64,000 nucleotides of DNA, from the NCBI GenBank assembly GCA_003557485.1, contig PWOI01000179.1:13789-77788 (forward strand). The letters run 5' to 3'. The notes beneath the pieces were generated by a model, which made no database searches, was not told the origin of the DNA, and was given only the letters and a program-made list of their open reading frames with translations. This document shows positions 1 to 62,583 of this stretch, piece by piece; the stretch's first letter is position 1; the number at the start of each line of letters is the position of its first letter. This DNA is from Elusimicrobiota bacterium. Lineage in GTDB: Bacteria; CG03; SLGR01; PWQF01. Both the position numbers and the translations under genes were made by a program.

Positions 1-3000
1 TTGTTAGGGTTGTTAGTTTTTGTCTGTTTTAATCTATATGCGGAAAGTCCGCCTGCTCCTTCAGAATTAAGTTTAAGAGTTGAGGGAACATCAGGGTCAG
101 GTATTCCGGAAAATTATGCAGGCATAGAGAATCCTTATCCGCAATTTAGTTGGGACTCCGCTAATCAGGAGGCTTTTCAGATTCAGCTTGGAATAGGGAA
201 TCCTGCAAATCCGTATAATGTTATATGGGATACGGAAAAAGTTATATCATCTAACAGTTACTGCTATTATGACGGTTCGGAACCCCTTCAATCCAGAGAA
301 CGATATCACTGGCGTGTGAGAATATGGGACAATAATGACCCCGAAGCGTCTCCTTCAGACTGGGCTCTGGACTCTCCTTCTTTTGAAATGAATACCTTTA
401 TATTTAACCGGGACTTTGAACCTATTGGTAATCAGAGTCCGGCGTTTGCTTTCGGGGATGTAACTGGCAACGGTCTGAGAGATATAGTTATCTCCGCTCA
501 TACCGGAACTACGGGGGAATTAATTGTATACGGGAATACTGGCAGCGGCGAATACGAAGCAGTATGGAGTACAGATTCGGTTGTTTCCGAATCAATAGCG
601 CTTGCAGACCTTAACTCCAATGGCTCTCTCGACTTGATAGTGCTTAACAGGCAATCGGCTATGGACAGTCTCTATATTTTCAAAAACAAGGGAGACGGTA
701 CTTTCGAAAAAATATTTCAGAGGACGGGTGACGGAAGCAGAGCTGTAGCTGTAGGGGATATTAATAGAAATGGTAGAATTGATATTGTTGAGGCATTTTA
801 CGGTGTAAACCGGGTTTGGTTAAACAGGAAAGAAAACTTTGATTTTACAGAGTATACTTTTGGAGGAAATAAAAATAATAATGATATTGCACTGGCAGAT
901 CTTAATGGAAATGGATATCTTGATCTTATAGTAGCTAACAGCGGGGCAAATGAAGTTTATCTTAATACGGGTCAATTAAATTCACCATTTGAAAACACAG
1001 CTGATTGGAACGACGAATCTCTTACTCCGGTTACAAGTAATTCGTTGGTGGTTATTGATATAAACGGAAATGGACTCTGGGATTTTGTCATAGGTGGCAG
1101 AATAGGCGACGATCCGGCTTTTTACAGGCTTTATATGAATGAAGGTGACGGTACTTTTAATGGCGATGGGACTACCGAACCATACGATGCCGATTCAAGG
1201 GCACTTACATCGGGTGACATAAATAATAACGGGTTACTGGACCTTGCAGACGGGAATCTGGATAGGGACCTTATTCTTATTAATGAAGGAGGTAGTTTCG
1301 ATCTGTTAAATGAAGGTTTTTATTCTAATGAACAGACTTACCGCGCAGTTCTTGCAGATTTTACGGGAAACGGGAAAGCAGACCTCCTTAGAGGGTTTAC
1401 AGATTCTAAAAGCAAACTGCTTATACAGGTTCCGGATGACTTGTATGTTCCCTATGAGCCTCCCGCTCCCCCGACAGATAATTTTGCAGGATATTACTCA
1501 ACTAGTACAGGAAAACTGCATTTAAGCTGGGGGCACGGGGAGAGCGGGTTTACTCCCCAGAGTCAGCTTTCCTACAATATACGCATAGGAACCTATCCGG
1601 GAGGAGGCAGTATTATCTCCGGCGCTCTGGGCTCAACTGATAATTCAGGGTCATTTTGGGGCAATATAGGACGTTCAACATATGTAAATCTGCAAGTTGA
1701 CCCACAAACTTTTTTCTGGAGTGTACAGGCTATTGATGGAGTTAAAAATGCCGGCCAATGGTCGGTTGAACATATAATTAATACTCCGCCGTCAATTGGT
1801 TGGGCCGAGGAGGGAGTTCTTCTTTCAACTTGCGCGCGCCAGTGGAGTTTTGACAAAATTACCGATAAAGAATATTTAACTTTCATATATCATGAAGATC
1901 GCAGAGGACTTATAGACATAGACTTTAGGGTAAGTGATATTGAGGGAAACAGGGTGAGGCTTACCGGGTTTTCGTATTCCACTGCCGGAGCCGACGGAAC
2001 ATGGTATGACGTTGCCGATGATAGCCCGAATCTGACTCTTTCAGGTAATCAGGAAACGTCCAACTGGCCGGATAAAAATGGAGAGTGGTTTAAGGCAACC
2101 GGAGATCTGGAAACGGAACATATGTTTACTTTTACTGCAGCTGATATGCTTAGGGATGAAGGCATTATAACAGGCAATAATTATAACTTTAAAACTTCCT
2201 CTTTTACTGTTAGGTTTACGGTTGTTGATGAACATGATGCCGAATCCGAGCCCGTGGTATCGGAATACTTTTCTGTTGATTTGAAGAGCCCCTCTGTTCC
2301 CGGATCCCTTATCACAACCGGAACTTACGATAAAGATTCTATTACTCTTGAGTTCAGCACACCTTCTGCCGATGATAACTTTAAAAAATATATGATTTTT
2401 TACGGTGAGACTCCGGGTGAAGCAGGTCATTATTACCCGGGTTACGGTACTATACATGCCGATGAAGCTCTTTTGAGTTATGATTTCGCAGGCGCCACGT
2501 CAACTGTCTTCGAGGGATTAAATCCAGACACCACCTATTATTTCAGAATATGGGCCTATGATAAATTCGGTAATTACAGCAGGCAGCCGGAAGAAGAGAT
2601 AACCGTTCGGAAAACAAACCATCCTCCAGATATTGAAATATATTCCGTATACCAGGCAACCGACGGAAGCGGGCTGGTCTATATTTCCTTCACCGGGTTT
2701 GATAACGATGTTGAATATTCAAGTTATTCCTGGAGCCAGTGCACCTTCAGCTTAGGGGGAAGTACATACGAAATGAAGCCTTCTACCGGTAATATTCTTT
2801 TTTCCGGAGAGCCGCTGCTCTTTACAAAAGATGTCTCTACTTCTGTTTTTGTATGGGATGCCGGACAGCAGCTTGCAGAGTTAACGGCCCTGTCGGATAA
2901 TATACAGGTGAATATTACTCTTACTGTTTTTGACGGAAGAGATACGGGATCAGCGGGATATTCTAATTTTAATGTAGACAATAAACCTCCATATTTTGAG

Positions 3001-5793
3001 GCTGGAGACCTGGAAATAGGGGAAGTTACTTCAGGGACTATAGAATGGCTTTGGCCAAGGGCCGTTGAGGAGAATTTTGTCAGGTACGAGCTTTGGTATT
3101 CTTCCGTAAGCGCTGAATCAGTCATTAACAGGTCAACACAAACGGCGCATTTTGAAACATTTGTAGATATCAATAAGACTGATGATATTACAGAAGAACT
3201 TCTTTCCCAAACACGGTACTGGGGGCAGGTTTGGGCTTATGACGGGCTGGGTTATGAAACCTATACATCAACGGTCTCACGAACTACCGGTTATCCTCCA
3301 AGTCTCTGGGTTTCGGCTCAGCCGGATCCAAAACGGGACGGCAGCGGCCACGTTGAATTTGAAGTTAAAATAAATGATCCTGATGGGTACGACAACTGGA
3401 TAAGTGTCAAGTTTTCTACAGATGGTGTTCTATTCCATAATGCCCACATAGGTCAAATAACAGATAAGGACGGAATACAGCGCACACCCTATAACATTGA
3501 GGAATACCAGATAAGCGGTATTCCTACAAAAGAAGGTGAGGACCTTATTACCAATACTCTGGTGATACGCTGGGATTCGAAAGACCAGCTTCCGGGTCAT
3601 ACATACGGATTGGATGGGCAGAATCACGAAAATGTCTATCTGCGTATAACTCCTTTTGATGGTTATTCAACAGGTGAAAGCACGCAGACCCAGGCCGTGC
3701 GAATAGATAATTCCAGGCCCGAACTTATAGTTTTTGATGATCCTGATCCTCTTATTAAAAGTTATAGTTGGTATAGTCACGATGATAGTGAATTAACGCT
3801 TTATTTTCATGGCGAATACGGCGAGCAAGGTGAATTTTTGTATGTGAGTACCGCATCTGTTGATTTTTCAAAAATTATGGTTTCAACAGGTACCGGACAG
3901 CCAGGGCAGTATATAGATCTTGAAGGTTCTGATGTTGAATTCTCGTTATGCGGAGATTATGTTCATATTACAATAACCGATACACACAGAAACTGGATTG
4001 CAAGACGTGATGGGGAGGGGAAGAGAGAAAATGTTTTTCTCAGGCTTTTATCCGGTGCTGTTGTTGACAGTTACGGTAATCCCAATATAGAGGAAGAACA
4101 GGTTAATTTTCACTGGATTGATAAAAGTGATCCAGTTTATCGATCTAATTACCTGACTTGGTATCCTGCCTGGTATTCGTATCCTTTTGATACTTTACCT
4201 CAGCTTACGACAGCTACCTATGAAATTATAGGAGGGGATATCAAGCTTAAACTGGAATTTGATGAGTATATGGATGTGCGCAGTTTTAGGGATACTGATT
4301 TAAGTTCAATAGTTATTTATGCGACATCACCATTTGACAGCAGGGATCTTTCTCATGATGAGAATATAACTGTTTTAACAGAGGAAAGTGATTCAAAGAT
4401 AATTGAATTTGACATACCTACGGGATTTCATCTGCTGATATGGGATTTTCAGGACGGAAATTTGTTTCTTTCCATTCCTGAAGAAAGCGACCTTAGGGAT
4501 TTATCAGGAAATCATTTGCTTGAGATTTCAACTGATGGTTCCCGCAGGATAGAAACACCATCGGAAGAAGATGCGCCGACTGTCAGTACGCAGACTGTTT
4601 CTCCGAAACCCGGAGAATATAATGTGTCAAAGACAACAAGTATTTATGTTGGATTCAGTACTTTTCTTGTTGATGACCCCCCGGAGAGAAAAAGTCCCAG
4701 GGAAAGTATAAATATCCGTCAGATTGAAGGGCCTACAGGCGAAAAATTAAGTAATGAAATATCGCCCGAAATAATAGTATACTGTAGAGAAGACAAACTT
4801 CTTGAATTTGTTCCTTCGAAACCCTTTCCGGGAAATTCCCTGATTGAAGTTACCATTGATGGGAATGAGATCTCTAATTTTTTTGGGGAACATATGGAGG
4901 AGGATTTTATATGGAGATTCAGGACGCAGTTGGATAGAGGGAAAGATAATCTTATAAGAAGCCCTTCGGGCATAGTTGAAATACTTGTTCCCGCTGGTCA
5001 GTTTGTATCAGACGGCGTAATAAATTTTACTGAAGGAATACCGTCCAAAGATCCCCATGATAAGGTATCAATAGATGCCTACAATGAGGCAGTAAGAAAA
5101 GAGAGATCTTGGGGTAACCCTTATAAATACCCTATAGAGGAGTTGAGCTTTGAGGTTCTTTTTTCAACTGATAGGAATAATCATTTTGACAGGGTTGCAT
5201 TCACGGAGAATGCGCAGATAACTATAAACTACTCAACGGTTATAATAAGCGGCTTAACGAAAACAGGAACCTGGGACTATATTCGTTCTGATTCAAAAGA
5301 TTACCGGCACAGTCCTCCTGTCGCTGAAAAGACTTTGCGAATCTATTACCTGGATGAGGACTCCCGGATGTGGCGCCCTCTTGCCTCGGAAGTAGATACG
5401 GACGAAAAAACCATTACGGCACCTATGAGGCATTTTAGTATTTATACTGTTATGGGAGGGAAGAATTACAGTGCCGAAGATGCCTATGCGTATCCGGTTC
5501 CCTATAAACCCTCGGAAATACCAGAAGATTTTAAAGGCGACCCGGCAAGATCCGGAATAAGGTTTACGCGCCTTCCCTCAGAGTGCGAAATAGAAATATA
5601 TACAATTTCAGGCCGGCTGGTAAATTCGTTTACCCATTCTGACGACAATCTGCTTCCGGGAGCGCAGGCAGGAAGCAGTTACTGGTACCCGGTGGAAAAC
5701 AGAAACGGACGGCCTTTAGAGAGCGGTGTTTATATATATGTGGTTGAAAGTTCCGGAAACAGGAAAAGCGGAAAGCTTATGATAATACGATGA
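1..5793 (+). CDS. Giant secreted cell-surface protein (at least 1930 aa): signal-peptide-like N-terminus, about 8 FG-GAP/VCBS beta-propeller repeats, multiple FN3/Ig-like domains, C-terminal type IX secretion (Por) sorting domain. True start is at or slightly upstream of the window edge.
   Basis: Uninterrupted ORF from position 1. Repeated D-x-N/T-G-N-G-x-x-D-hydrophobic motifs (DVTGNGLRDIVIS, DLNSNGSLDLIVLN, DINRNGRIDIV, DLNGNGYLDLIVAN, DINGNGLWDFVIG). C-terminal YPVPYKP...IEIYTISGRLV...SGVYIYVVES...GKLMIIR matches the T9SS C-terminal-domain pattern. A hydrophobic N-terminus precedes AESPP. Confidence 0.85.
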   Translation: MLGLLVFVCFNLYAESPPAPSELSLRVEGTSGSGIPENYAGIENPYPQFSWDSANQEAFQIQLGIGNPANPYNVIWDTEKVISSNSYCYYDGSEPLQSRERYHWRVRIWDNNDPEASPSDWALDSPSFEMNTFIFNRDFEPIGNQSPAFAFGDVTGNGLRDIVISAHTGTTGELIVYGNTGSGEYEAVWSTDSVVSESIALADLNSNGSLDLIVLNRQSAMDSLYIFKNKGDGTFEKIFQRTGDGSRAVAVGDINRNGRIDIVEAFYGVNRVWLNRKENFDFTEYTFGGNKNNNDIALADLNGNGYLDLIVANSGANEVYLNTGQLNSPFENTADWNDESLTPVTSNSLVVIDINGNGLWDFVIGGRIGDDPAFYRLYMNEGDGTFNGDGTTEPYDADSRALTSGDINNNGLLDLADGNLDRDLILINEGGSFDLLNEGFYSNEQTYRAVLADFTGNGKADLLRGFTDSKSKLLIQVPDDLYVPYEPPAPPTDNFAGYYSTSTGKLHLSWGHGESGFTPQSQLSYNIRIGTYPGGGSIISGALGSTDNSGSFWGNIGRSTYVNLQVDPQTFFWSVQAIDGVKNAGQWSVEHIINTPPSIGWAEEGVLLSTCARQWSFDKITDKEYLTFIYHEDRRGLIDIDFRVSDIEGNRVRLTGFSYSTAGADGTWYDVADDSPNLTLSGNQETSNWPDKNGEWFKATGDLETEHMFTFTAADMLRDEGIITGNNYNFKTSSFTVRFTVVDEHDAESEPVVSEYFSVDLKSPSVPGSLITTGTYDKDSITLEFSTPSADDNFKKYMIFYGETPGEAGHYYPGYGTIHADEALLSYDFAGATSTVFEGLNPDTTYYFRIWAYDKFGNYSRQPEEEITVRKTNHPPDIEIYSVYQATDGSGLVYISFTGFDNDVEYSSYSWSQCTFSLGGSTYEMKPSTGNILFSGEPLLFTKDVSTSVFVWDAGQQLAELTALSDNIQVNITLTVFDGRDTGSAGYSNFNVDNKPPYFEAGDLEIGEVTSGTIEWLWPRAVEENFVRYELWYSSVSAESVINRSTQTAHFETFVDINKTDDITEELLSQTRYWGQVWAYDGLGYETYTSTVSRTTGYPPSLWVSAQPDPKRDGSGHVEFEVKINDPDGYDNWISVKFSTDGVLFHNAHIGQITDKDGIQRTPYNIEEYQISGIPTKEGEDLITNTLVIRWDSKDQLPGHTYGLDGQNHENVYLRITPFDGYSTGESTQTQAVRIDNSRPELIVFDDPDPLIKSYSWYSHDDSELTLYFHGEYGEQGEFLYVSTASVDFSKIMVSTGTGQPGQYIDLEGSDVEFSLCGDYVHITITDTHRNWIARRDGEGKRENVFLRLLSGAVVDSYGNPNIEEEQVNFHWIDKSDPVYRSNYLTWYPAWYSYPFDTLPQLTTATYEIIGGDIKLKLEFDEYMDVRSFRDTDLSSIVIYATSPFDSRDLSHDENITVLTEESDSKIIEFDIPTGFHLLIWDFQDGNLFLSIPEESDLRDLSGNHLLEISTDGSRRIETPSEEDAPTVSTQTVSPKPGEYNVSKTTSIYVGFSTFLVDDPPERKSPRESINIRQIEGPTGEKLSNEISPEIIVYCREDKLLEFVPSKPFPGNSLIEVTIDGNEISNFFGEHMEEDFIWRFRTQLDRGKDNLIRSPSGIVEILVPAGQFVSDGVINFTEGIPSKDPHDKVSIDAYNEAVRKERSWGNPYKYPIEELSFEVLFSTDRNNHFDRVAFTENAQITINYSTVIISGLTKTGTWDYIRSDSKDYRHSPPVAEKTLRIYYLDEDSRMWRPLASEVDTDEKTITAPMRHFSIYTVMGGKNYSAEDAYAYPVPYKPSEIPEDFKGDPARSGIRFTRLPSECEIEIYTISGRLVNSFTHSDDNLLPGAQAGSSYWYPVENRNGRPLESGVYIYVVESSGNRKSGKLMIIR

Positions 5794-6857
5794 AAAGGAT
5801 TATTATAAAATCTATTTTTTCTTTTGCCGCAATTATAATAGTTGCAACTGCTCCCGTATTCTCTGTTTTCGGAGACGGGCCCGGAAGCACAGGATATGAT
5901 TTTCTCAATATACCCATAGGTGCGCGCCGCATAGGAATGGCCGCCGGGACAGCCGTAACCGGAGATAGTGACATATACTGGTGGAATCCTGCCGGGGTGG
6001 CATATGTGGAAAGGCCAGTTGTGAGCCTGATGCATAACCAGTTTATAGAAGGCATAAGCCAGCAGAGAGCAGGGTTCACGTTTCCGATGGAGGGCATGTC
6101 GGCGGGCGCTGTTAACCTTACAATGTTGTCGTATGGTGATATAGACGGGTATGACTGGGACGGCAGTCCGACCGGAGGGGTTTCTGCCGGAAGTTACAGT
6201 ATATCCTATACTCAGGCAAAAAGATTTACTTATGATACTGCTGCTGGCTTAAGTTTAAAAGTTATACATGAACAGCTTGATGATGAAAGCGCCTTTGCCG
6301 CAGCTCTTGACGGTGGAGCTTTGTTTGAACCATATGAAGGAGTTTCTGTGGGGCTGGGATGGAGGAACCTCGGCGTAAGCGGTAATTTTATTGATGAGGC
6401 GCCACAGCTTCCTTTATCCTTGTTTTTCGGAGCCGGGTTGAGACTTAATTATTTTACTCTTTTTGTAACAGATATTTCTTATCTGGACGGAGAACTTAAA
6501 TATGGTGCAGGGGTAGAGCTTAGTCTATGGGACTCTTTCTTTTTCCGTGGCGGTTGGGAAAGTTTTGCTGATGTTGATGAGACCTTCCGGCTTGGAGCGG
6601 GCTGGAGCTTCCGGGGAACCGGTATAAATTATGCGTTTGCTCCTTATGATAAGTTCGGCAGTACTCATAGGATGGATATAAGCTTTCAATTTGGTGAGCC
6701 GCCGCTTATAGAGAGAATATACCGCAGGGGGCAGAGTTTATATAGGCAGGAGAAATTTGAAGAAGCCTGGGTTGAATTCAATAAGGTAAAAGCTTTAAAC
6801 TCCAGGTATAAACGCATAAATTACTGGGTTGAAAGAGTGGAGGATGAAATAAAATAA
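5790..6857 (+). CDS. FadL/TodX/PorV-family outer-membrane beta-barrel protein (355 aa), start overlapping the stop of the T9SS cargo gene (ATGA)
   Basis: Signal peptide followed by the N-terminal motif IGARRIGMAAGTAVTGDSDIYWWNPAGVAY, characteristic of the FadL/OMPP1 hatch region (G-x-G-x-A-x-x-A-D-D-A...NPA). Alternating amphipathic beta-strand pattern with a terminal aromatic residue. Position immediately after a T9SS cargo suggests a PorV-like shuttle. Confidence 0.6.
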   Translation: MKRIIIKSIFSFAAIIIVATAPVFSVFGDGPGSTGYDFLNIPIGARRIGMAAGTAVTGDSDIYWWNPAGVAYVERPVVSLMHNQFIEGISQQRAGFTFPMEGMSAGAVNLTMLSYGDIDGYDWDGSPTGGVSAGSYSISYTQAKRFTYDTAAGLSLKVIHEQLDDESAFAAALDGGALFEPYEGVSVGLGWRNLGVSGNFIDEAPQLPLSLFFGAGLRLNYFTLFVTDISYLDGELKYGAGVELSLWDSFFFRGGWESFADVDETFRLGAGWSFRGTGINYAFAPYDKFGSTHRMDISFQFGEPPLIERIYRRGQSLYRQEKFEEAWVEFNKVKALNSRYKRINYWVERVEDEIK

Positions 6858-8738: not shown

Positions 8739-10646
8739 ATGAATAAAATGATAAAAGTTCTGGTACTTCTTATGGCGCCCCTTTTTCTGGGCGCCTCTGA
8801 TTTTATGGACTATACAACTTTAATGAATCAGAAAATGGAAACCGAGAGGCGCCTTGAAGACCATCTGCAGGGAATTGTTTCCAGAATAGTCGGGGAAGGA
8901 CGTTCCACAGTTTTAGTCAGCGTAAATCTTTCCGACCTGAGCCGCAGCCGTGAAACTGTAGAAGAATGGCTTGAGCGGGGTGAGGATGCCGAAAGGCGGC
9001 TTCCGATGCGGGAAGAATACCTTCCCGGTATACCCCGCAGGGAAGATATGGCAGAAAGAGAAACGGAAGTCGCCGAGCGGGCCGGTGGAAAACGCCTCCA
9101 GGACGTAATAACTCTGCCTTCGGAATTTATAGAGAGTATGCGCATAAGCCTTATACTTGATTCCACTATATCCGAGACTGTAATCGCAACGGTGGAAAAC
9201 GTTATAACCGAGGTTATGGACCTGGATGCAGCCCGGGGCGATCGTTTAACTATACAGACAGTGGATTTTGCGGGTAGAACGGTAGATTTTATGGGTTTCC
9301 TATTTAATCCATATTTTTATGTTATATCCCTGGTACTTATAATTATAACCATACTCGCGCTTTTTCTTTTCGGGCCGCTGAAAAAATTTCTTTTCGCTAC
9401 TTTACAGACGATGAAAGACTTAAAAGGAATGAAGAGCGAAACCGAATACTCAGGAGGCGGGGGCGGGGGCGGGGGCGGATTTGGCATAACGCCGGACGGC
9501 GAAATTGAAATGGAAGAAGAGATAGAAGAAGATGAAGAATTGAAAGAGGGGGAAGAAGCAGATATAGAAGGCGAAGAAGAAGACGAGGAGTTTAAAAAGA
9601 TGACATATATACCGCTTAAGTTTCTGGAAAACAAGGATTTGAAGAAACTGGCTTACCTTTTAAGTTTTGAAAAACCGGAAGTAGGGGCTCTTCTTCTTAA
9701 ATATCTTTCGCCTCCGCGCGCTGCAAAAGTCCTCAGCTCAATTCCGGGAGAAGAAAGAACTATAGGAATAACAAGGGAGATTGTAAAATTTCAGAGAACT
9801 TCTAAGGAGGTCATGCAGAAAATAGATGAGTTTCTTAGCAGAAAAATAGATTACATTGCCGGCGGCGCCGAAAGTCTTGTGGAAATGATTGAAATGATGG
9901 ATGAAGAAAAAAGAGAGCAGCTCCTAAACCAGATTTCTTCTGAGGATCCTGAATTTGCCGAAAAAATTAAAAAGCGTATTTTCAGTTTTGAAAATATTGT
10001 AAATATGGATGACCCGTCCATACAGACACTAATACAGGAAATGGAGACTGCCGACCTTGGCGCAGCCCTTAAAAATGTATCTGAAGAAGTAAGAAACAAA
10101 TTTGTTTCCAATATGAGCGAAGGTGCGGCTGCTCTTTTAAAAGAGGAAATAGAATTTGGAAAGAAAATGACCGAGGAGCAGATAAAACAGAAACAAATGG
10201 AAGTTGTCGCAAAAATAAAAGATCTGGAGACGTCCGGCTCAATAGCACCCGTGACCGGCGCATCCAAAGAGGAATTATGGGTGGAAGAGCTGGGTGAGGG
10301 AGAAAAAGAAGGAGTTCTTGAGGAAATTATAAAGGCGGCCCAGGAAGCTTACGATAAGAAACAGGAACTTGAAGCTGCTGAGGCTGCCGGCCGTCAGGAT
10401 GATGAAGCTGCATTTGAAAGCTACCGTAAAGGTTTGGAACTCTATAAACACCAGGATTACGATAATGCAATAAAAGAGTTTAATAAATCCATTGCCTCCA
10501 ATCCATCCCTGTGGCAGAGCTATCAATATATAGGTTCCTGCTATCTTGCGCTCGATAATCAGGATGGAGCTAAAAAAGCCTACCGAAAAGCCCTTGAGCT
10601 TAATCCGTCAAACGAGCAGCTCAGGCAATGGTTGGAAAGTCATTGA
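8739..10646 (+). CDS. Membrane-anchored FliG-like protein (635 aa): signal/TM N-terminus, internal TM helix, poly-Gly and acidic linker, FliG middle/C-terminal-like domain, C-terminal TPR repeats
   Basis: Residues about 290-500 align with the FliG M/C pattern (KIKKRIFSFENIVNMDDPSIQTLIQEMETADLGAALKNVSEEVRNKFVSNMSEGAAALLKEEIEFGKKMTEEQIKQKQMEVVAKIKDLETSGSI versus FliG F-x-F-E-D-I...DDRAIQ...L-A-L-K-G-A-S-E-E...NMS-x-R-A-A-E-L-L-R-E-D...EEAQ-x-x-I...EEGEI). Hydrophobic segment FYVISLVLIIITILALFLFGPL. GGGGGGGGGFG and an E-rich run. TPRs at the end. Confidence 0.7.
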   Translation: MNKMIKVLVLLMAPLFLGASDFMDYTTLMNQKMETERRLEDHLQGIVSRIVGEGRSTVLVSVNLSDLSRSRETVEEWLERGEDAERRLPMREEYLPGIPRREDMAERETEVAERAGGKRLQDVITLPSEFIESMRISLILDSTISETVIATVENVITEVMDLDAARGDRLTIQTVDFAGRTVDFMGFLFNPYFYVISLVLIIITILALFLFGPLKKFLFATLQTMKDLKGMKSETEYSGGGGGGGGGFGITPDGEIEMEEEIEEDEELKEGEEADIEGEEEDEEFKKMTYIPLKFLENKDLKKLAYLLSFEKPEVGALLLKYLSPPRAAKVLSSIPGEERTIGITREIVKFQRTSKEVMQKIDEFLSRKIDYIAGGAESLVEMIEMMDEEKREQLLNQISSEDPEFAEKIKKRIFSFENIVNMDDPSIQTLIQEMETADLGAALKNVSEEVRNKFVSNMSEGAAALLKEEIEFGKKMTEEQIKQKQMEVVAKIKDLETSGSIAPVTGASKEELWVEELGEGEKEGVLEEIIKAAQEAYDKKQELEAAEAAGRQDDEAAFESYRKGLELYKHQDYDNAIKEFNKSIASNPSLWQSYQYIGSCYLALDNQDGAKKAYRKALELNPSNEQLRQWLESH

Positions 10647-10709
10647 AAGCGAAAATAGAATGCAGAACTTGAAAAAAAATAAATACTGTATTAGTACTTT
10701 ACAATTCTT

Positions 10710-13700
10710 ATGAATCCTGAAAACAACCAAAATCATAATAAAGGGCAGGGACTTCCCGGACCGCCTCCGCCTCCCTTTTCGGGAGATGCCGGGAAGAATC
10801 CTTCGCCCGGAATACCGGATATGCCGCCAATTCCCGGCTCTGCGCCACCCCCTCAGTCTATTGATGATGTTTTTACTCCTCAGGACCCCGGCATGGCAAA
10901 AGAAAAAAAACGTCCTTCTGAGAGAGAGAAACAGATTGAAGAAGAAATTTCCAGGCTGGACAGCCGTATGGAAAAAGAACGGCTTCAGCTGATGGAAAGG
11001 CTTAAGGAAAAAGAAAACGAAAACCTACGCCTGCAGGAACAGTTTCTTGAAAAAGAAAAAGAGGATGCCCGCCGTAAAAAGGAAGAGTTTGATAGATTGA
11101 AAGAAAAGCTTCATGAACAGTTTGTCGAAAAGGAAAATAAACTTAAAGAGGAAAGAGAACAGTGGCGCAGAGAGCTTGACGAAATAAGAAAAGAAAACAG
11201 AAGCAGACTTGCCCTTGAGCAGACGCAGAACCAGATCCGCATAGAGGCCCAGCAGCAGGCTCGCGAAGAATTTCAGCAACAGATGAAAGAAATGAAAAAG
11301 GAGCTTGAAAATGCCCGCCGCCGCGCTTACGAAGAGGCAATTAAACACAAGGAAGAAGAGAAAAATTCCATTAAGGTAGAGCAGGCCCTTAAAGAGGTCC
11401 TCCAATCAACTTCAATGAGCCAGAAAGCCGAGCAGGTTGAAAAGGAAAAAGAAAAACTCCGCGAAGAACTTTATCATCTTGAAAAAGAACTGGCATCCCA
11501 GAAAATTAATATGACTCGCAAGCTGCAGGAGAGCGAGAATTTAAGAGACAATATCAGGCTTGACTATCATAATAGGATCCGTGAAAGCCGGAGTCAGTAT
11601 GAAAGTAAAATTGCAGAGTTGAGAGAGACTGCTTCCGAGCTTGGCAATAAACTCTGGCAGGCCCGGAACAGCTATGAGAACAAAAAGGAGCTGTGGGAAG
11701 AAAGGGTCCGGGAAAATATTCAGGAAAAGGAAAATCTTACACTGCAGTACCAGAAACAGATAAGCGAACTCAGACTTGAATATGAACAGAAAATTACCGA
11801 TGCGTTAAGCGCAAAAGAATCTGCAGAAAACAGGTATTGGGGAATTAAGGAAAAATTTGATGAGCAAACGGTTGAGCTTAATTCGCGTATTAAAGAACTT
11901 GAAAAAGAGAAAGACCTTATAGAAAAAGAATACGGAATGAAAGTCGCCTCTCTTGAAAGCGCCCTTAATGAAGAGAAAGCCGAACTTGCTGCCCAGAAAA
12001 AGATAAGCGAGGAAAGACTTAACCGAATTAACGATGAACTTCACGCAAAGGAGAACAGGTATAAGGAAAAAATAAGCGATATAGAAATAAATTATTCCGA
12101 AAAAATCCAGAATATAAAAGAAAAATATAAATCCGGCCTTTCTGAAAATGAAAGAGAAATAGAAAAGCTTAAGGCGCTTCTGAAGGAAAGCCGTGAGAAA
12201 TTATCACAGAATTCCGGAGGATCTCACCGGGATTTTGAAAACAGCAAAAAAGAGGTAGAAGAAGCCCGCCGTCTAATGGAGAAGGAAAAGAACAGGTTCA
12301 ATTTCCGGCTCAGAGAAATAGAGAATGATTATGAAAAGCGTCTCTCTGAACTTAAAGTTAAAAACAGCCGTCTTGAATCAAGGATATCAGCCCTTGAAGA
12401 AAAAAGAGAGACCTCTATAGATAAATATAACGACAAGATAGAAGAACTCAACGGAAAAATAAATGAACTTAAAATTGAAAACGCAGCTTTACAGGGAGAT
12501 TTACTGAAAACCGAGAGGCAGATTGAGAGTTCCGACAGAGCTTTAGAGGATATGGCCCGCAAAAATGCCGAAATTCACCACCGCCTTGTCAGCAGCCGAA
12601 AAGAAAATGATGAGGACATTTACCGGTTGAGAGAAGAAATAAATTCTCTGCGCAGGGAAAAAACCGAAGCTCTTCTAAGGATTGAGAACGAGCATTCCAG
12701 GGAATCGGAACTCTATGAGAACCAGCTTCTTCAGGCGCGCAGGGCAACAGAGGATCTCAGGCGCGAAAAAGACCGGCAGATAGATTCAATTAAACAGCAG
12801 TTTGATAATTACAGAAAGAACTTTCAGTGGCTTAAACAGGAGTGGCAGCAGCAAAAAGAAGAACTCCGGGAAAATTTCAGCGTGAAGGAAAAGGGATATG
12901 AAAATGAGATAAAACAGCTTGAATCGGCTCTGAGCGAAGTGCAGAAACTGAAAACACATTCTGAAAGTGAACTTAACGCTGAAATTGAAGCTGTCAGGAA
13001 GGAAAAACAATCCCTGCAGGAAAAATTTGAATCAAAAATTCAGCAGATGAGGGATGAATTTGCAGCTAAAAAGACGGATCTTTATGAAAAACTGAATGAA
13101 AAACAAAGGAATATAAGCGAATTGGAAGCCCGTCTGGATACAGAAAGAGTTGACTATACAGCCCGGATCCAGCAAGCGGAAAAAGAGAAAACTGCTGTTT
13201 TGCGGGAAAAAGAGATCCTTGATGTAGAAACTGAAAAACTGAAAAAAGAGACTCATAGCCTCCAGCTCAGGTACGAAAGAGAAGCAGAAGAAAACCGTAA
13301 ACTGAGAGAGGCTCTTCATCATGGTGAAAAGAAGTACAGAAACGAAATAGGAAAGCTTAAGGAATACTACGAGAAAAACCTTGAATCCCTTCGCAGAAGG
13401 CAGGATGGTATTGCAAATGTAGAGTATGACAGCCTTGATACTGAGAATAGAGAATTGAAGCATCAGCTTAAGTCTGCTGAATCTGAGATAAGCCGGCTTA
13501 AGTCACAGCTTGTAGAAAAAGAAGAGGCTCAGGAAAAAATACAGGCTGAAATAGATAAATATACAGCAGAAATTGATGACCTTACACAGGAATTGAAGCA
13601 AAGACAGTCTGTTATTGAACAACTTGAACGGAAAGTTTCTGATATTGATGATTCGCAGGCTGTGCAGGAGGATATAAGCCAGCTTAAAAAAGAAAACAGC

Positions 13701-14618
13701 GAATTAACCGGACATTTGGAAGAATCATTGCGGGAAAGGGATATTCTTAAAGAGAAAAATGCCAGCCTTTTGTCGGAAAATGAAGCTAAAAAGCAGCAAA
13801 TAGAACAGCTTTCCCTTAAACTTGAGGAAAAAGAAAGCCAAATAGGCCAGCTTCAAGGTAAAATTCCCGGAGAAGATATTATATCCGGTAAGAATGAGGA
13901 AATAGCAGAACTTGAAGATGAAATTAAAGAGCTAAGGTCCGCCCTTTCGGATTCTGAATCTAAAATAAAGCAGCTTTCAGAGGCTGCATCCCGTGCGGAT
14001 TCTCTTATGGACAGCAAAAAAGAGATAGAAGAACTTTCCGCTTCACTTGCGGAAAAACATTTGAAAGAAATTGAAGAGAAAGAAAGAATTATAGAAGAAT
14101 TAAGAAAAGAACTTGAGGAGTCCCTTGAAGAACTTGAAGAGAGGGAGCAGCAGCCTGTGACCGATGGGCTTAAATCTGAAAGGCTGCAGGTTCTTGCCGG
14201 GGAGAATGCTGAACTCAAGGAAAAAATAAGAGAATTGGAGTCTCAGCTTGAGATAGGAATGGAGCAGCTTCGCAGTGAGAAGATGGTTCCGGAATATGAT
14301 ACAGAAAAAACAGACGAAAAAATAAAGCAAATCAATGAAAAATGGAGGAAAAAATGGGCCGGCCGCGAACAGAAAGTAAAAGATTTCATATCACAGGCAA
14401 AAGCCAGGCACAGCCAGCTTAAAGACAAGCTTCAGGTTGCTCTTGAAGACCAGAAAATTCTTTCACAGCTTGCAGAAAAGGAAAAACAACAGAAACAGAA
14501 GCTTGCTTCAGAGCAGGCCGAACTTATAAAAGAGCTTCAGGAAAGCAACAGGTCTTTTGTCAGTAAAATACTTGCCAAACTGAAAAAAGGCGGGCCTAAA
14601 GGCGTACTCATCCTTTAA
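10710..14618 (+). CDS. Giant coiled-coil protein (1302 aa): Pro-rich N-terminus followed by about 1200 aa of E/K/R/Q-rich heptad-like sequence
   Basis: Continuous ORF with a strong purine-rich coding strand. N-terminal PGPPPPPFSGD...PPIPGSAPPP. The remainder is low-complexity, charged and predicted alpha-helical. No enzymatic motif recognised. Confidence 0.7.
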   Translation: MNPENNQNHNKGQGLPGPPPPPFSGDAGKNPSPGIPDMPPIPGSAPPPQSIDDVFTPQDPGMAKEKKRPSEREKQIEEEISRLDSRMEKERLQLMERLKEKENENLRLQEQFLEKEKEDARRKKEEFDRLKEKLHEQFVEKENKLKEEREQWRRELDEIRKENRSRLALEQTQNQIRIEAQQQAREEFQQQMKEMKKELENARRRAYEEAIKHKEEEKNSIKVEQALKEVLQSTSMSQKAEQVEKEKEKLREELYHLEKELASQKINMTRKLQESENLRDNIRLDYHNRIRESRSQYESKIAELRETASELGNKLWQARNSYENKKELWEERVRENIQEKENLTLQYQKQISELRLEYEQKITDALSAKESAENRYWGIKEKFDEQTVELNSRIKELEKEKDLIEKEYGMKVASLESALNEEKAELAAQKKISEERLNRINDELHAKENRYKEKISDIEINYSEKIQNIKEKYKSGLSENEREIEKLKALLKESREKLSQNSGGSHRDFENSKKEVEEARRLMEKEKNRFNFRLREIENDYEKRLSELKVKNSRLESRISALEEKRETSIDKYNDKIEELNGKINELKIENAALQGDLLKTERQIESSDRALEDMARKNAEIHHRLVSSRKENDEDIYRLREEINSLRREKTEALLRIENEHSRESELYENQLLQARRATEDLRREKDRQIDSIKQQFDNYRKNFQWLKQEWQQQKEELRENFSVKEKGYENEIKQLESALSEVQKLKTHSESELNAEIEAVRKEKQSLQEKFESKIQQMRDEFAAKKTDLYEKLNEKQRNISELEARLDTERVDYTARIQQAEKEKTAVLREKEILDVETEKLKKETHSLQLRYEREAEENRKLREALHHGEKKYRNEIGKLKEYYEKNLESLRRRQDGIANVEYDSLDTENRELKHQLKSAESEISRLKSQLVEKEEAQEKIQAEIDKYTAEIDDLTQELKQRQSVIEQLERKVSDIDDSQAVQEDISQLKKENSELTGHLEESLRERDILKEKNASLLSENEAKKQQIEQLSLKLEEKESQIGQLQGKIPGEDIISGKNEEIAELEDEIKELRSALSDSESKIKQLSEAASRADSLMDSKKEIEELSASLAEKHLKEIEEKERIIEELRKELEESLEELEEREQQPVTDGLKSERLQVLAGENAELKEKIRELESQLEIGMEQLRSEKMVPEYDTEKTDEKIKQINEKWRKKWAGREQKVKDFISQAKARHSQLKDKLQVALEDQKILSQLAEKEKQQKQKLASEQAELIKELQESNRSFVSKILAKLKKGGPKGVLIL

Positions 14619-14622
14619 AAAA

Positions 14623-14850
14623 ATGATAAATGTGACCAAATTAAACGGCGATGGTATAATCCTTAACGCCGAACTTATAGAAACGGTTGAATCGCGCCCC
14701 GACACTCTTATAACCCTTACTACTGGAAATAAAATTATGGTAAAGGAAAAAGTTGAGGATATAATAAAAAGGGTTGAGGATTATAAAAGGCAGGTAAATA
14801 TGCTTACCCGAGAGAAGCTTAGTGCGTTGCTCAGGGAAGAAGAGGAATAA
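14623..14850 (+). CDS. flbD: FlbD-family flagellar-type protein (75 aa)
   Basis: MINVTKLNGDGIILNAELIETVESRPDTLITLTTGNKIMVKEKVEDIIKRVEDYKRQV matches the FlbD pattern (I-x-L-T-R-L-N-G-x-x-F-x-L-N-A-D-L-I-E-T-I-E-x-T-P-D-T-V-I-T-L-x-N-G-K-K-Y-x-V-K-E). Conserved flbD-motA-motB order. Confidence 0.7.
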   Translation: MINVTKLNGDGIILNAELIETVESRPDTLITLTTGNKIMVKEKVEDIIKRVEDYKRQVNMLTREKLSALLREEEE

Positions 14851-14853: not shown

Positions 14854-15711
14854 ATGGACCTGACGACAGTAATAGGGCTTTCCGGAGGCATTATAATAGT
14901 TTTTACAGCGGTTGCTCTCCGTGGTGGTATGGCAGGCCTGCAGGGGTTTCTGGATATGCCTTCCGCTATGATTACTTACGGGGGAACCTTTGCCGCTCTT
15001 ATGGTGAACTATCCGATAGATAAAGTTGTAAAAGCCTTTAAAGTCGTCAAAAAAGTATTTACCGAACAGCAGGACGACCCTAACGATTATATTGAAAAAT
15101 TCCGCCAGCTGATTATCAAAGCCTCAAAACAGGGAGTTCTTTCCCTTGAGGAAGATATAAAAAAAATGGACAACGAATTTTTAAGAAATGGAGTTAAAAT
15201 GGTCATGGACGGCCAGAGCCAGGAGCATATAGAAGAAGAAATGGAGACTGAACTGGCATTTACCAGGGAAAGGCATAAAATAGGCCAGGAAATTTTTGTG
15301 ACACTTGGCACTTACTCCCCTGCGTTCGGTATGATAGGGACTATTATGGGTCTTATCCTGATGCTAGCCGACCTTCAGGATACTGCCCAGATAGCTGCCG
15401 GTATGGCGGTAGCTCTATTGACAACCTTTTACGGCGCCCTTGGCGCTTATCTTATTTTTCTTCCCATCGCCGGCAAGCTGAAAAGGCGTTCGGAAGAGGA
15501 GCTTTTTCTTAAAAGTGTCATAACCAGAGGCGTCATGTCCCTTCATGCGGGAGAGGTTCCTTCAATAGCGGTAGCTAAACTGCGCGCGTATATACCGAGA
15601 TCCTCTTTTATGGAGCCTTCCGGCACAAAAAAAGGGAAGGCTGACGAAAAAGAAGAAGGAAACAAGAAGAAAAAAACAAAGGTAAAATACCGTAAAAAGA
15701 AGAAGAAATGA
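14854..15711 (+). CDS. motA: MotA/TolQ/ExbB-family proton-channel stator subunit (MotA-like, 285 aa) with Lys-rich C-terminal tail
   Basis: MDLTTVIGLSGGIIIVFTAVAL...ITYGGTFAALMV N-terminal TM pair. C-terminal TM pair with the LGTYSPAFGMIGTIMGLI...LLTTFYGALGAYLIFLPIAGKL signature. Tail KKGKADEKEEGNKKKKTKVKYRKKKKK. Confidence 0.85.
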   Translation: MDLTTVIGLSGGIIIVFTAVALRGGMAGLQGFLDMPSAMITYGGTFAALMVNYPIDKVVKAFKVVKKVFTEQQDDPNDYIEKFRQLIIKASKQGVLSLEEDIKKMDNEFLRNGVKMVMDGQSQEHIEEEMETELAFTRERHKIGQEIFVTLGTYSPAFGMIGTIMGLILMLADLQDTAQIAAGMAVALLTTFYGALGAYLIFLPIAGKLKRRSEEELFLKSVITRGVMSLHAGEVPSIAVAKLRAYIPRSSFMEPSGTKKGKADEKEEGNKKKKTKVKYRKKKKK

Positions 15712-16562
15712 GCAAAATTGCCGCATTTAAGAGGAGTCTTCCTAAAGACGAGGGGGATATTGAGGTCGGTAAAGGCTCCCCCCCGTGGATGACTACTTAT
15801 GGAGACCTTGTTACCCAGCTCCTGATTTTTTTTGTTATGATGTTTGCGCTTGCCGCCACGCTCAATGAGCTGCAGTTGATAAGCATAAAACGCAGAATTG
15901 AGAACTACGCATACCAGAACCAGCTTGGCCATCTTATAATGCTCGATATTAACCCCAAAGGATTGGTAATAACCCTTAGCGAAAAAATGATGTTTGATTC
16001 CGGCCAGGCCGAGATATATGAGGATGCAAAAGCCATTCTCTCCGCAATAGCAGGTGAAATAATAGATGTACCCAATCCTGTCAGAATTGAAGGTCATACG
16101 GATAGCGTACCCATCAGTACAGATAGGTTTCCTTCCAACTGGGAACTGTCAACAGCCCGGGCGACAAATGTAGCAAGATATCTTGTAGAGAACCTGGAAT
16201 TTCCGCCTGACCGGATAGCTGCCGGGGGGTACAGTAAATACCATCCTGCGGTAGGAACGGAAATTGAAGATGAAATATTCAACTACAAGTTAAAAGTAAG
16301 AGAGGTTCCACAGCATTATTCCCTTGAGCTCAGGCGCGCATCCACTCCGGAGGAGGAAGACCTGGTTATGTTGAGAATAAGAGAAGAACAGCTTGAGATA
16401 CAACGGGAAATGCAGGGAATAATTATGGAGCATATACGTATTGCAAACCTTGATGCGGACAGAAGAGCCCGGAACAGGAGGGTTGACATAATAGTGGAGA
16501 GGATAGGCACTACTGTTGAAAGAAGAACGGATATCGCGGCGCCTGTTGCCGTTTCTCATTAG
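15708..16562 (+). CDS. motB: MotB-like stator subunit with OmpA-type peptidoglycan-binding domain (284 aa)
   Basis: PPWMTTYGDLVTQLLIFFVMMFALAA plug/TM motif. IEGHTDSVPI...FPSNWELSTARATNVARYLV...NRRVDIIV OmpA-like domain. Start overlaps the motA stop (ATGA). Confidence 0.85.
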   Translation: MSKIAAFKRSLPKDEGDIEVGKGSPPWMTTYGDLVTQLLIFFVMMFALAATLNELQLISIKRRIENYAYQNQLGHLIMLDINPKGLVITLSEKMMFDSGQAEIYEDAKAILSAIAGEIIDVPNPVRIEGHTDSVPISTDRFPSNWELSTARATNVARYLVENLEFPPDRIAAGGYSKYHPAVGTEIEDEIFNYKLKVREVPQHYSLELRRASTPEEEDLVMLRIREEQLEIQREMQGIIMEHIRIANLDADRRARNRRVDIIVERIGTTVERRTDIAAPVAVSH

Positions 16563-16720: not shown

Positions 16721-16726
16721 ATTTAG

Positions 16727-16754
16727 GGCCGCCTTTAAGGCGGCTCTTTTTTTT
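16727..16754 (+). terminator. Attenuator terminator 2: GGCCGCC-tttaa-GGCGGCT stem-loop plus U8, ending at the trpE ATG. The right arm contains the trpE SD-like AAGG.
   Basis: ggccgcc tttaa ggcggct followed by c tttttttt (16747-16754). ATG at 16755. Confidence 0.55.
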
Positions 16755-24603: not shown

Positions 24604-25848
24604 TTGCGGAAAATAAGGCTTGACCTGGAGCCATTAAAAAAAGTTCTTACTGATATGGGTTCCCCTCATCTTGAGATTCCCGTTATATCTGTAGCCGGAA
24701 CAAATGGAAAGGGCTCGGTTTGCGCTTTTTTGGACAGCATTATGGATAAAAAAGGGCTAAAGACGGGACTCTATACTTCACCGCATTTTAGAAACCTTCT
24801 GGAAAGGATAAAATGCGGCCGTCGAAGCATCTCTTCCGGAATATATTCCCAACTAGAAGATAGAATACATGCGGCAGAAGAAAAATCCGGCGAAAAATTA
24901 ACGGAATTTGAGTTTTCAACTGCGGCTGCGATACTCTACTTTAATATGGAAAAATGCGATTTAAATATAATGGAAACAGGAATGGGCGGCCGGCTTGATG
25001 CAACAAATGTATGCCTTAACAAGAAAGCTGCCGTGATAACTTCAATTGATATAGACCATAGCGAATTTCTGGGAGAGACAAAAGAAGAGATAGCAAAAGA
25101 GAAAGCCGGAATTATAACAAACTCTGCACCGGTTATAGATGCCTCGGGTACGGATGCGGTTGAGCGGGAAGCTGTCAGGAAGGGCGCGCCGGTAAAAAAA
25201 TACGGCAGGGATTTTGATGCTCTAAATATCAAAAAAGCAGGAGATAATGGATTGTTTTCTTTTGATTATATAAGCGGTAAAGTTGAAATTAAAGAGCTTA
25301 TTCCTTCACTCAGAGGAATTCATCAATGTTGTAACGCCGCAGCTGCAGTGGCAGCGGCATTTGAATCAGGCTTTAGTGTTTCAGAGGATGATATAAGAAA
25401 CGGGTTGAAAGACGTCTGTCTTCAGGGAAGACTGCAGTTTATCGGACTGCCGGATGGAAAAACAGCTATACTTGATACGGCGCATAATCCTGCTGCCTGC
25501 CGGTCAGTAGCAGAATTTGTCAGGCAGCACCTGCCTCCCGAAAGGCGGCTTTTTACTGTTGCAGGTATGTTAAAGGATAAAAAATACCGGGAAATGATGG
25601 CTATTCTGGAACAAGTTTCATATAAAATATTTACATTTACCCCTCCTTCTGAAAGAGGTCTTGAAGGAAAGAAACTTGCCGGTTTTGGCAGTGGTGCCCG
25701 CGGCTTTGAAACCTTCAAGGAAGCCTACGGAGCAGTTCTTGAAATAATGCAGCCGGGTGAAGCTATGCTTGTATGCGGTTCCTTCGCTTCGGTGTCCGCC
25801 GCGCTTGATGCTTTAAGAGCAGGAAGAAATAAACGAAATGTTTGTTAA
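24604..25848 (+). CDS. folC: Folylpolyglutamate synthase / dihydrofolate synthase (Mur ligase family)
   Basis: P-loop VAGTNGKGS. Mur-ligase middle and C-terminal domains. The accD-folC adjacency is conserved in many bacteria. Start codon uncertain (TTG at 24604 or the downstream ATG). Confidence 0.8.
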   Translation: MRKIRLDLEPLKKVLTDMGSPHLEIPVISVAGTNGKGSVCAFLDSIMDKKGLKTGLYTSPHFRNLLERIKCGRRSISSGIYSQLEDRIHAAEEKSGEKLTEFEFSTAAAILYFNMEKCDLNIMETGMGGRLDATNVCLNKKAAVITSIDIDHSEFLGETKEEIAKEKAGIITNSAPVIDASGTDAVEREAVRKGAPVKKYGRDFDALNIKKAGDNGLFSFDYISGKVEIKELIPSLRGIHQCCNAAAAVAAAFESGFSVSEDDIRNGLKDVCLQGRLQFIGLPDGKTAILDTAHNPAACRSVAEFVRQHLPPERRLFTVAGMLKDKKYREMMAILEQVSYKIFTFTPPSERGLEGKKLAGFGSGARGFETFKEAYGAVLEIMQPGEAMLVCGSFASVSAALDALRAGRNKRNVC

Positions 25849-58468: not shown

Positions 58469-58474
58469 GAAAAT

Positions 58475-59092: not shown

Positions 59093-59113
59093 AAAAGGAA
59101 GGAGTAACTTATT

Positions 59114-59416
59114 ATGCAGAATCAGGCTCTTGGAATGATAGAGACAAGGGGTCTTGTCGGCATGATAGAAGCTGCGGATGCTATGGTAAAAGCGGCTGAT
59201 GTCAGGATGGCCGGCTACGAGAAGATAGGACACGGATACGTTACGGTTATGGTAAGGGGTGAAGTAGCCGCCTGCCGTGCAGCCTGTGAGGCAGGTAGCG
59301 CAGCTGCGCAGCGGGTAGGCGAACTTGTGTCTGTACATGTAATCCCCAATCCGCATAAGGACCTTGAGGGCAAACTTCCGATATCTCAGGAATTTTTCAA
59401 AAAAGCCCCCAAATAA
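59114..59416 (+). CDS. BMC-H hexameric microcompartment shell protein (PduA/EutM/CcmK-like)
   Basis: [26 protein letters not shown]...[17 protein letters not shown]...VHVIPNPH. Confidence 0.9.
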
Positions 59417-59477
59417 AAACCGGTCAGGAATGCCGGCTGAGATATAATGCCTGCAGGCATAAAGGGAGAGAAATAAA

Positions 59478-59777: not shown

Positions 59778-59817
59778 ATTGTCCCCCTTTTTTTGAATCT
59801 TTGAGGAGGCAGACCCT

Positions 59818-61248: not shown

Positions 61249-61253
61249 AACGC

Positions 61254-62579: not shown

Positions 62580-62583
62580 GAAA

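Follow-up and report, generated by a model that had tools for sequence, protein, structure and literature searches.

The first 6,857 nucleotides of a 64,000-nucleotide stretch of DNA from an Elusimicrobiota bacterium (assembly GCA_003557485.1, contig PWOI01000179.1, positions 13,789 to 77,788; the whole stretch is hereafter the window) encode a large adhesin and, overlapping its stop codon, an outer membrane barrel of the PorV/PorQ family, named here PorVQ1. These two genes, referred to below as the cassette, are considered as a candidate cargo and its anchor. Downstream lies a module of flagellar-type motor genes, which begins with a second barrel of the same family (PorVQ2-TPR) and a fused rotor protein (FliF/G, or FliFG). 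The locus was compared with a set of 48 loci (L001 to L048) obtained from scans and look-ups, and gene content was read across the 64-kb window and in flanks of up to 10 kb at the other loci.

The adhesin and its coupled barrel

The initial annotation described the adhesin as a protein of at least 1930 aa with an FG-GAP propeller, and this description holds. The open reading frame (ORF) matches Pfam FG-GAP_3 in five stretches (98.6 bits) and FG-GAP (49.6 bits). It also carries seven DxNxNGxxD motifs spaced at about 50 aa, and the propeller is therefore taken to be seven-bladed. The same annotation listed fibronectin-type FN3 repeats, which slightly overstates the case, as one fn3 domain exceeds its threshold (aa 775–862, 27.8 bits against a cutoff of 25) and the remainder are other Ig-like domains. 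Further Pfam matches are Ig_Rha78A_N (aa 38–122) and Big_5 (aa 1524–1642).

Window position 1 falls inside the hydrophobic region of the adhesin signal peptide (LLGLLVFVCFNLYA|ES). Complete signal peptides, the Sec signal expected of a cargo with a C-terminal sorting domain, are present on the orthologues in L031, L032 and L035. Because orthologues of 1890–2000 aa begin with a normal signal peptide, just 10 or so N-terminal residues are likely to lie off the window.

The two genes of the cassette are translationally coupled. The adhesin TGA (5791–5793) overlaps the PorVQ1 ATG (5790–5792) in the sequence ATA CGA TGA (cgATGAaa), so that the ATGA overlap noted at first can be read directly from the DNA. 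The distance from adhesin stop to barrel start is 3 nt or less in all six loci that carry the cassette, namely the window, L001 and L035 (ATGA), together with L030, L031 and L032.

PorVQ1 belongs to the PorV/PorQ family, as NF033709 gives it 111.9 bits and the cutoff is 90. By the equivalog models, it is orthologous to neither PorV nor PorQ: NF033710 for PorV gives 27.3 bits against a cutoff of 250, and NF033711 for PorQ gives 97.3 bits against 220 and covers aa 15–221 alone. Among NCBIfam results at E <= 0.01, neither barrel of the locus matches the PorP/SprF family. A profile of the PorVQ1 family searched against the PDB finds Flavobacterium johnsoniae PorV (6h3i_F) at E = 1e-35, followed by TodX and TbuX at about 5e-4.

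The predicted structure agrees with these assignments. An AlphaFold2 model of PorVQ1 (27 sequences, pLDDT 85.6) has 14 strands followed by three helices, which form a TPR-like bundle at aa 306–354. In Foldseek searches its best matches are PorV structures (8gl6_F and 6h3i_F; E about 1e-13, TM-score 0.65), with FadL behind. The NPA hatch motif of the FadL superfamily is present, with N66 and A68 invariant and P67 nearly so. Family model, profile search and predicted fold thus bear out the original call of a FadL/PorV-family barrel; of the two families named for checking, PorV is matched at the level of the PorV/PorQ family and PorP is not.

The C-terminal domain of the adhesin

The adhesin ends in a domain that had been annotated as a type IX secretion system (T9SS) C-terminal sorting domain. 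Scanned over the full-length protein, TIGR04183 scores 19.3 bits, under its cutoff of 23; on the isolated last 120 aa it scores 26.3 bits (E = 5e-6), over the cutoff. PF18962 reaches 18.9 bits on the tail, under a cutoff of 27. An alignment (A2) combined this tail with the tails of proteins encoded upstream of related motor loci, 13 sequences in all. Every one of the 13 matches PF18962/TIGR04183, and 11 match FlgD_ig. Against the PDB, a profile of these 13 C-terminal domains (CTDs) finds the PorU CTD (6za2, E = 4e-8) as well as PorZ (5m11) and FlgD Ig domains, and it scores highest against the tails of PorU and PorZ.

Since the tail alone passes TIGR04183 and the A2 profile matches known T9SS tails, the domain is a genuine homologue of T9SS type-A CTDs. 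Judged from sequence, this homology is clear and membership by strict family thresholds is borderline; the original assignment therefore stands as homology, with the reservation that the full-length protein falls below the TIGR04183 cutoff. The adhesin tail is not of type B, as CHU_C gives 17.5 bits, below its cutoff of 27. Tails of the same type occur on otherwise unrelated passengers, as would be expected of a sorting tag: on FG-GAP adhesins, on giant proteins almost without Pfam domains, on a fragment in L022, and on more than 3,200 database proteins.

The top matches of the CTD profile are proteins of 104–203 aa that consist almost entirely of a FlgD_ig/CTD domain, several of them labelled 'partial' by their source. 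Two were looked up as candidate stand-alone proteins. P0270 (L036 10001–10603, in the complete Elusimicrobiota genome CP096137.1) was rejected, being the split C-terminal end of a 3,239-aa giant gene. P0249, on a 563-kb JGI contig, is a genuine small stand-alone gene amid housekeeping genes.

The motor module

The initial annotation placed the pair directly upstream of a motor-like operon. The motor genes are real, but the second barrel, PorVQ2-TPR, lies between the pair and the FliG-like gene. PorVQ1 and PorVQ2-TPR are paralogues (27% identity, E = 4e-21), alignable from the signal peptide through the first TPR, so that PorVQ1 has the appearance of a duplicate that was shortened. PorVQ2-TPR stands directly upstream of the FliF/G fusion gene in each of the 22 module loci that are readable at this position; the two genes are separated by 12 nt in the window and overlap in L001 and L033.

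The rotor protein comprises an N-terminal signal or transmembrane segment, a periplasmic alpha-beta domain resembling RBM domains (YscJ_FliF_C-like), a transmembrane segment (aa 193–211), a Gly/acidic linker, FliG_M, FliG_C and a TPR region. It is interpreted as a natural fusion of the C-terminal ring domain of FliF with FliG, because homologues of its N-terminal domain pass the YscJ_FliF_C threshold. The fliG model TIGR00207 gives 146.9 bits on this protein, below 226.7. Its AlphaFold2 model is of low confidence (pLDDT 62.9, pTM 0.27), and solely the order of secondary structure and the transmembrane segment were taken from it.

The family that shares the N-terminal domain of this protein (window 8739–9608) comprises 144 clusters at 50% identity, with P0095, P0137, P0074 and P0083 among its members. 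Some of its forms are about 480 aa long and have no TPR, and others, of about 830 aa, carry a HisKA/HATPase histidine kinase at the N-terminus.

The stator subunit MotA reads ASKQGVLSLEE, as against ARREGLLSLED in 6ysf, and thus has Ser where solved MotA proteins carry Arg. We take this Ser to occupy the position equivalent to MotA R90 (E. coli and PomA numbering). The torque helix of the FliG part reads MSEGAAALLKEEIE and contains an invariant Gly, presumably at the position equivalent to R281 of E. coli. On these sequences, the classical charge residues of rotor and stator look rearranged.

A hairpin scan found no terminator-like site in the intergenic gaps from the adhesin through motB, and the cassette is therefore probably co-transcribed with the motor genes. 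Of the terminator-like hairpins in the region scanned, the best one comes after motB, where the transcription unit is likely to have its 3' end (Table 1).

Table 1. Features of the adhesin and motor region in the window, and of giant genes at related loci
Feature	Position	Strand	Remarks
Adhesin	1..5793	+	ORF of at least 1930 aa, open at the window 5' end; orthologues of 1890–2000 aa in L001, L031, L032, L035
Parts of the adhesin, in order			Signal-peptide remnant, Ig_Rha78A_N, 7-bladed FG-GAP propeller, fn3/Ig-like region, Big_5, CTD
Calcium-binding-type DxNxNGxxD motifs (n = 7)	457..1383	+	aa 153–461
C-terminal sorting/anchoring domain	5431..5790	+	Last 120 aa of the adhesin; homology to type-A CTDs of T9SS and to Ig-like domains of FlgD
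PorVQ1, PorV/PorQ-family 14-stranded outer membrane barrel	5790..6857	+	355 aa; signal peptide, NPA hatch motif, 3-helix TPR-like tail
PorVQ2-TPR, paralogous PorV/PorQ-family barrel with periplasmic TPR domain of about 220 aa	7131..8726	+	NF033709 115.1 bits; PF03687 UPF0164 above cutoff
FliF-FliG fusion-like rotor protein	8739..10646	+	635 aa; Pfam/NCBIfam, model, transmembrane prediction
Coiled-coil protein	10710..14618	+	1302 aa, without signal peptide or transmembrane segment; N-terminal PPPPPxPPFSG motif conserved
FlbD	14623..14850	+	75 aa; PF06289 90 bits
MotA, flagellar-type stator subunit	14854..15711	+	PDB 6ysf MotA, E = 1.6e-49
MotB	15708..16562	+	Plug, transmembrane segment with YGDL aspartate, OmpA-like peptidoglycan-binding domain
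Terminator-like hairpin	16725..16747	+	10 bp stem, 7 G-C pairs, T-run; after motB, before trp operon
Giant gene upstream of the module			L001/L009, L035, L004, L006, L008, L014, L015, L018, L019, L020, L023; FliFG identity 25%–61%
Giant gene stretches	L001 1–1268; L035 1–1011; L008 2–8326; L014 3–8375		

Conservation of the module and distribution of the cassette

The core of PorVQ2-TPR, FliFG, coiled-coil protein, FlbD, MotA and MotB is kept in L001–L023 and L033–L035 as far as the contigs reach, the region upstream of FliFG in L022 not being assessable. This conservation extends down to 25% FliFG identity, and the coiled-coil proteins of module loci always start with the PPPPPxPPFSG motif. 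The operon occurs in more than 20 loci, both in Elusimicrobiota metagenome-assembled genomes (MAGs) and in MAGs labelled Clostridia, Caldiserica, Sumerlaeota or Deltaproteobacteria. Assemblies with the module include PWMP01, JAFGSA01, CAYZAK01, DMEZ01/UBA9639 and JBDRKX01.

In 11 loci, a giant CTD protein is encoded upstream of the module and runs off the locus; giants with a CTD adjoin the module in 12 of 18 informative loci, about two thirds. The L001 giant has 8,258 aa and that of L035 has 17,658 aa, with more than 2,700 aa visible in others, and their adjacency to the module holds at three depths of divergence. Pfam recognises nearly nothing in three fragments of these proteins, returning one fn3 domain and one sub-threshold CTD.

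CTD proteins and barrels always occur 1:1, and their subtypes correspond. The adhesin-type CTD (AYPVPYKP...GKLMIIR) pairs with PorVQ1, and the giant-type CTD (NYPNP...KGGYIxRI...RKIAIIR) pairs with PorVQ2-TPR. The conserved adjacency of CTD giants to the motor module makes a functional connection of CTD proteins with the motor plausible. As judged from gene order, the conserved partner of the motor is PorVQ2-TPR together with the giant CTD protein.

The cassette itself is more sporadic. It lies beside the motor module in three loci (the window, L001/L009 and L035) and elsewhere in three others (L030, L031 and L032). In L001/L009 and L035, whose FliFG proteins are 59% identical to that of the window, the cassette sits between the giant gene and PorVQ2-TPR. 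The window has the same downstream order, and the gene upstream of its adhesin lies off the window. L030, which carries a cassette, and L033, which carries a motor locus, derive from the same sample.

When metagenomes were scanned with PorVQ1 orthologues, the matches were all distant barrels apart from one short fragment, and the count of cassettes linked to a motor was left unimproved. The distant PorV/PorQ barrels (L037 and L045–L047, at most 31% identity) are each directly preceded by an ORF that ends in a CTD, as is the fragment (L048, 56% identical). No motor gene is visible beside these distant pairs, on contigs that are mostly short.

The contig that holds the L030 cassette also encodes a 577-aa fn3/Ig_Rha78A_N protein followed by a 310-aa protein without annotation (10188–12866). 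These two are probably not a further cargo and barrel, since the CTD and PorVQ profiles matched neither.

The host and its secretion genes

The FliG-like neighbour has 20 close homologues, and wherever the source of one is given, the label reads Elusimicrobia or Elusimicrobiota. Elusimicrobia MAG CSSed10_282R1 (PWMP01000083), with a FliFG that is 88% identical, is the nearest relative that has a name. T9SS has been described in Bacteroidetes/Chlorobi only (PMC5562754), and a survey of motility genes in Elusimicrobiota reports GldAFG alone, in one genome (bioRxiv 10.1101/2022.07.08.499144). No T9SS core gene (SprA/Sov, PorK/L/M/N or GldK/L/M/N, PorU, PorZ or PorT) is seen in the 64-kb window or in the Pfam-annotated flanks.

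The initial annotation took the adhesin to be T9SS cargo. What survives of this is the CTD homology and the PorV/PorQ-family partner. The strict label is doubtful because the host is an Elusimicrobiota bacterium, the PorV and PorQ equivalogs fail, PorP/SprF is unmatched, T9SS core genes are unseen locally, and the published survey is as described.

The motor genes likewise fall short of a flagellum. The window and the Pfam-annotated flanks contain no further flagellar genes, and the loci read show no separate FliF with RBM1–3, FliG N domain, export apparatus, or rod, hook or filament genes. Most free-living Elusimicrobiota keep motAB, flbD and fliG and lack structural flagellar genes, and the role of the retained genes has been called unclear (bioRxiv 10.1101/2022.07.08.499144). 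In the literature on combinations of FliG, MotA, PorV and T9SS and on giant genes, no published description of this operon was found.

A probable cargo and anchor with a plausible link to a motor

On balance, we find it probable that the adhesin and PorVQ1 form a cognate 'cargo plus anchor' cassette, similar to PorZ–PorQ, that is likely to be an accessory passenger of a motor-linked envelope machine. The adhesin would be exported by Sec, and its C-terminal beta-sandwich domain would be bound by the co-translated PorVQ1. The barrel would then tether the adhesin to the external face of the outer membrane, as PorQ holds PorZ and PorV holds PorU in Porphyromonas. PorVQ1 is in this account the shortened paralogue of PorVQ2-TPR, and the cassette probably arose as a duplicate of the motor's own pair of giant and barrel, becoming a second, accessory passenger of the same envelope machine. 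The periplasmic TPR that comes right after the last strand of both barrels could dock with the rotor ring on its periplasmic side. The sequence data show the identities of the domains, the fold, the coupled translation, the statistics of synteny and the paralogy; we infer the binding of the CTD by the barrel, the exposure of the adhesin at the surface and a coupling of either movement or export to the motor.

A motor link is plausible on the evidence of conserved CTD giants, the gene coupling of barrel and rotor, and a transcription unit in which no terminator-like site was seen. It is weaker for the adhesin–PorVQ1 pair itself, because the cassette also occurs alone. The suggestion that the adhesin is the cargo or the moving element of the motor can thus be kept as plausible by way of the giants, but it is tempered by the solitary pairs of L030, L031 and L032.

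A broader proposal, which we regard as possible and put forward tentatively, is that the adhesin–barrel and giant–barrel pairs are the outer membrane and surface parts of an undescribed rotary machine that spans the envelope and is neither a flagellum nor a T9SS. Its MotAB/FlbD stators would turn an inner membrane FliF–FliG ring, and the TPR tails of the barrels would drive export or movement of the CTD giants. The giant coiled-coil protein might organise the ring on its cytoplasmic side. Such an apparatus for gliding or secretion would combine components of flagellar motors with T9SS-like ones, and would account for the orphan motAB, flbD and fliG genes of Elusimicrobiota that have no flagellum.

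Several observations weigh against linking cargo, anchor and motor in this way. The operon encodes no outer membrane translocon, whether SprA/Sov-like or a secretin, and the translocation of a 1,930-aa protein is the largest gap in any model. Six motor loci (L007, L010, L011, L016, L021 and L033/34) have other genes upstream and no CTD gene there. The cassettes of L030, L031 and L032 are away from any motor module and flanked by unrelated genes, some on the opposite strand. PF18962 remains below threshold on the adhesin tail, which passes TIGR04183 solely when scanned alone. Lastly, FadL-family barrels of Treponema pallidum that also end in a TPR bundle are thought to import hydrophobic nutrients (PMC8407342).

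The setting of those three cassettes, among unrelated and partly opposite-strand genes, supports the view that the adhesin and PorVQ1 are a self-contained anchoring or export cassette without functional connection to the motor, inserted beside it by chance in a few lineages. The distant metagenomic pairs of CTD protein and barrel without a visible motor gene, mostly on short contigs, fit this view too, as does the lack in PorVQ1 of a long TPR domain such as the motor's barrel has. Against it, the insertion point between giant gene and PorVQ2-TPR is identical in the divergent loci L001 and L035, besides the window. Between the cassette and the motor genes there is no terminator-like site, and PorVQ1 is paralogous to the motor's own barrel and retains its first TPR. 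Moreover, genomes with an unlinked cassette may have a motor elsewhere, as the common sample of L030 and L033 illustrates. We rate this explanation as unlikely, though it deserves serious consideration.

Ordinary T9SS cargo with a PorV-type shuttle, served by a complete T9SS elsewhere in the genome and with the motor irrelevant, is improbable. The adhesin CTD, scanned as an isolated tail, does match TIGR04183, and the CTD profile matches PorU and PorZ; the best match of the barrel in both sequence and structure is PorV, and NCBI gives the names 'T9SS type A sorting domain-containing protein' and 'PorV/PorQ family protein' to homologues from Elusimicrobiota. Against this, the host belongs to a phylum outside those with a described T9SS (PMC5562754: Bacteroidetes/Chlorobi only). 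Core genes are unseen in the 64-kb window and the Pfam-annotated flanks, and the survey reports just GldAFG in one genome. The PorV and PorQ equivalogs fail widely (27 against 250 bits and 97 against 220 bits), and canonical PorV neither carries a TPR tail nor comes as a separate gene for each cargo.

It is very improbable that PorVQ1 imports hydrophobic substrates in the manner of FadL, as proposed for the UPF0164 proteins of T. pallidum, and neighbours the adhesin by mere operon convenience: it shares the FadL-superfamily fold, conserved NPA hatch, 14 strands and 3-helix TPR tail modelled for TP0548, TP0859 and TP0865 (PMC8407342), and PorVQ2-TPR exceeds the PF03687 UPF0164 threshold, but six loci keep the translational coupling with a CTD protein, CTD and barrel subtypes co-vary 1:1, and in the profile search PorV (1e-35) leads TodX or FadL by about 30 orders of magnitude.

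Implications

T9SS-style tails and PorV-like barrels occur outside Bacteroidota as translationally coupled pairs, one for each cargo. If the genomes concerned have no T9SS translocon, recognition of a CTD by a barrel would be an anchoring principle that is older and more modular than T9SS itself. The locus also offers a concrete hypothesis for the orphan motAB, flbD and fliG genes of Elusimicrobiota that have no flagellum, placing them in a conserved operon with a barrel and usually a giant surface protein. If the motor acts on CTD proteins, the flagellar rotor–stator couple would be put to a new use here, with a bearing on the evolution of flagellar, gliding and secretion motors. In addition, some of the largest bacterial genes seen, encoding 8,258 and 17,658 aa, would be tied to a specific machine.

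Other features of the window

The rest of the window consists of housekeeping genes, including the trp operon, tatC, rpsP, trmD, topA, polA and rho, and a microcompartment locus. Every plausible gene at positions 1–64000 is on the + strand and GC skew is positive throughout the 64 kb, an extreme case of co-orientation. The microcompartment-type locus (57719–63584) encodes a triosephosphate isomerase, a PduL-type phosphotransacylase, an aldehyde dehydrogenase, an RnfC/Nuo51-like protein, a bacterial microcompartment (BMC) shell protein with two BMC domains, and RpiB.

The ORF for ribosomal protein S16 (31331–32032) is 233 aa long, with the S16 domain confined to aa 10–67 and a C-terminal extension of unusual length. 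Long antisense ORFs run across this gene. Two other ORFs are without a Pfam match, at 25838–27838 (666 aa) and 46676–47806 (376 aa).

Comparison with known systems

By analogy, the functionally closest known systems are PorZ–PorQ and PorU–PorV. In Porphyromonas gingivalis, PorU is anchored by PorV and PorZ by PorQ, so that in the T9SS attachment complex a surface protein with a type-A-like CTD is held 1:1 on a 14-stranded barrel of the PorV/PorQ family (PMC5562754). The Elusimicrobiota cassette differs in its host, in a barrel that is orthologous to neither PorV nor PorQ and ends in a periplasmic TPR tail, and in the translational coupling of cargo and barrel. Its neighbours are flagellar-type rotor and stator genes, with SprA/Sov, PorK/N and PorL/M unseen nearby.

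A single general PorV serves many cargos in F. johnsoniae, rather than one barrel serving each. That PorV, solved with the SprA translocon and the RemA CTD (PDB 6h3i, 8gl6), is the best match to PorVQ1 in structure (TM-score 0.65) and in sequence (E = 1e-35). However, it shares just 18% identity with PorVQ1 and has no TPR tail.

The SprB–SprF system of Flavobacterium gliding was named in the initial annotation as a model for the pair. There too, the gene of a giant motile adhesin stands beside that of a dedicated outer membrane barrel, and a proton-driven motor moves the adhesin. The CTD of SprB is of type B, and SprF is a PorP-family barrel. At the present locus, the CTD is type-A-like, with CHU_C below its cutoff, the barrel has no PorP/SprF match, and the candidate motor is MotAB with FliG rather than GldLM. 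SprB–SprF was therefore rejected as an analogue on the grounds of CTD type and barrel family, PorZ–PorQ and PorU–PorV being closer.

The UPF0164 proteins TP0548, TP0859 and TP0865 of T. pallidum combine a 14-stranded FadL-type barrel and NPA hatch with a C-terminal periplasmic 3-helix TPR bundle (PMC8407342). PorVQ1 has the same architecture and PorVQ2-TPR passes the PF03687 threshold, whereas the treponemal proteins are not reported beside CTD proteins or motor genes.

Finally, the motor module resembles the flagellar MS-ring, C-ring and stator in its FliG_M and FliG_C domains, its FliF-C-like periplasmic domain, MotA, MotB with plug and OmpA domain, and FlbD. In contrast to the flagellum, FliG_N and most of FliF are absent from its rotor, in which one fused chain combines a single short periplasmic domain, the FliG part and an additional TPR.

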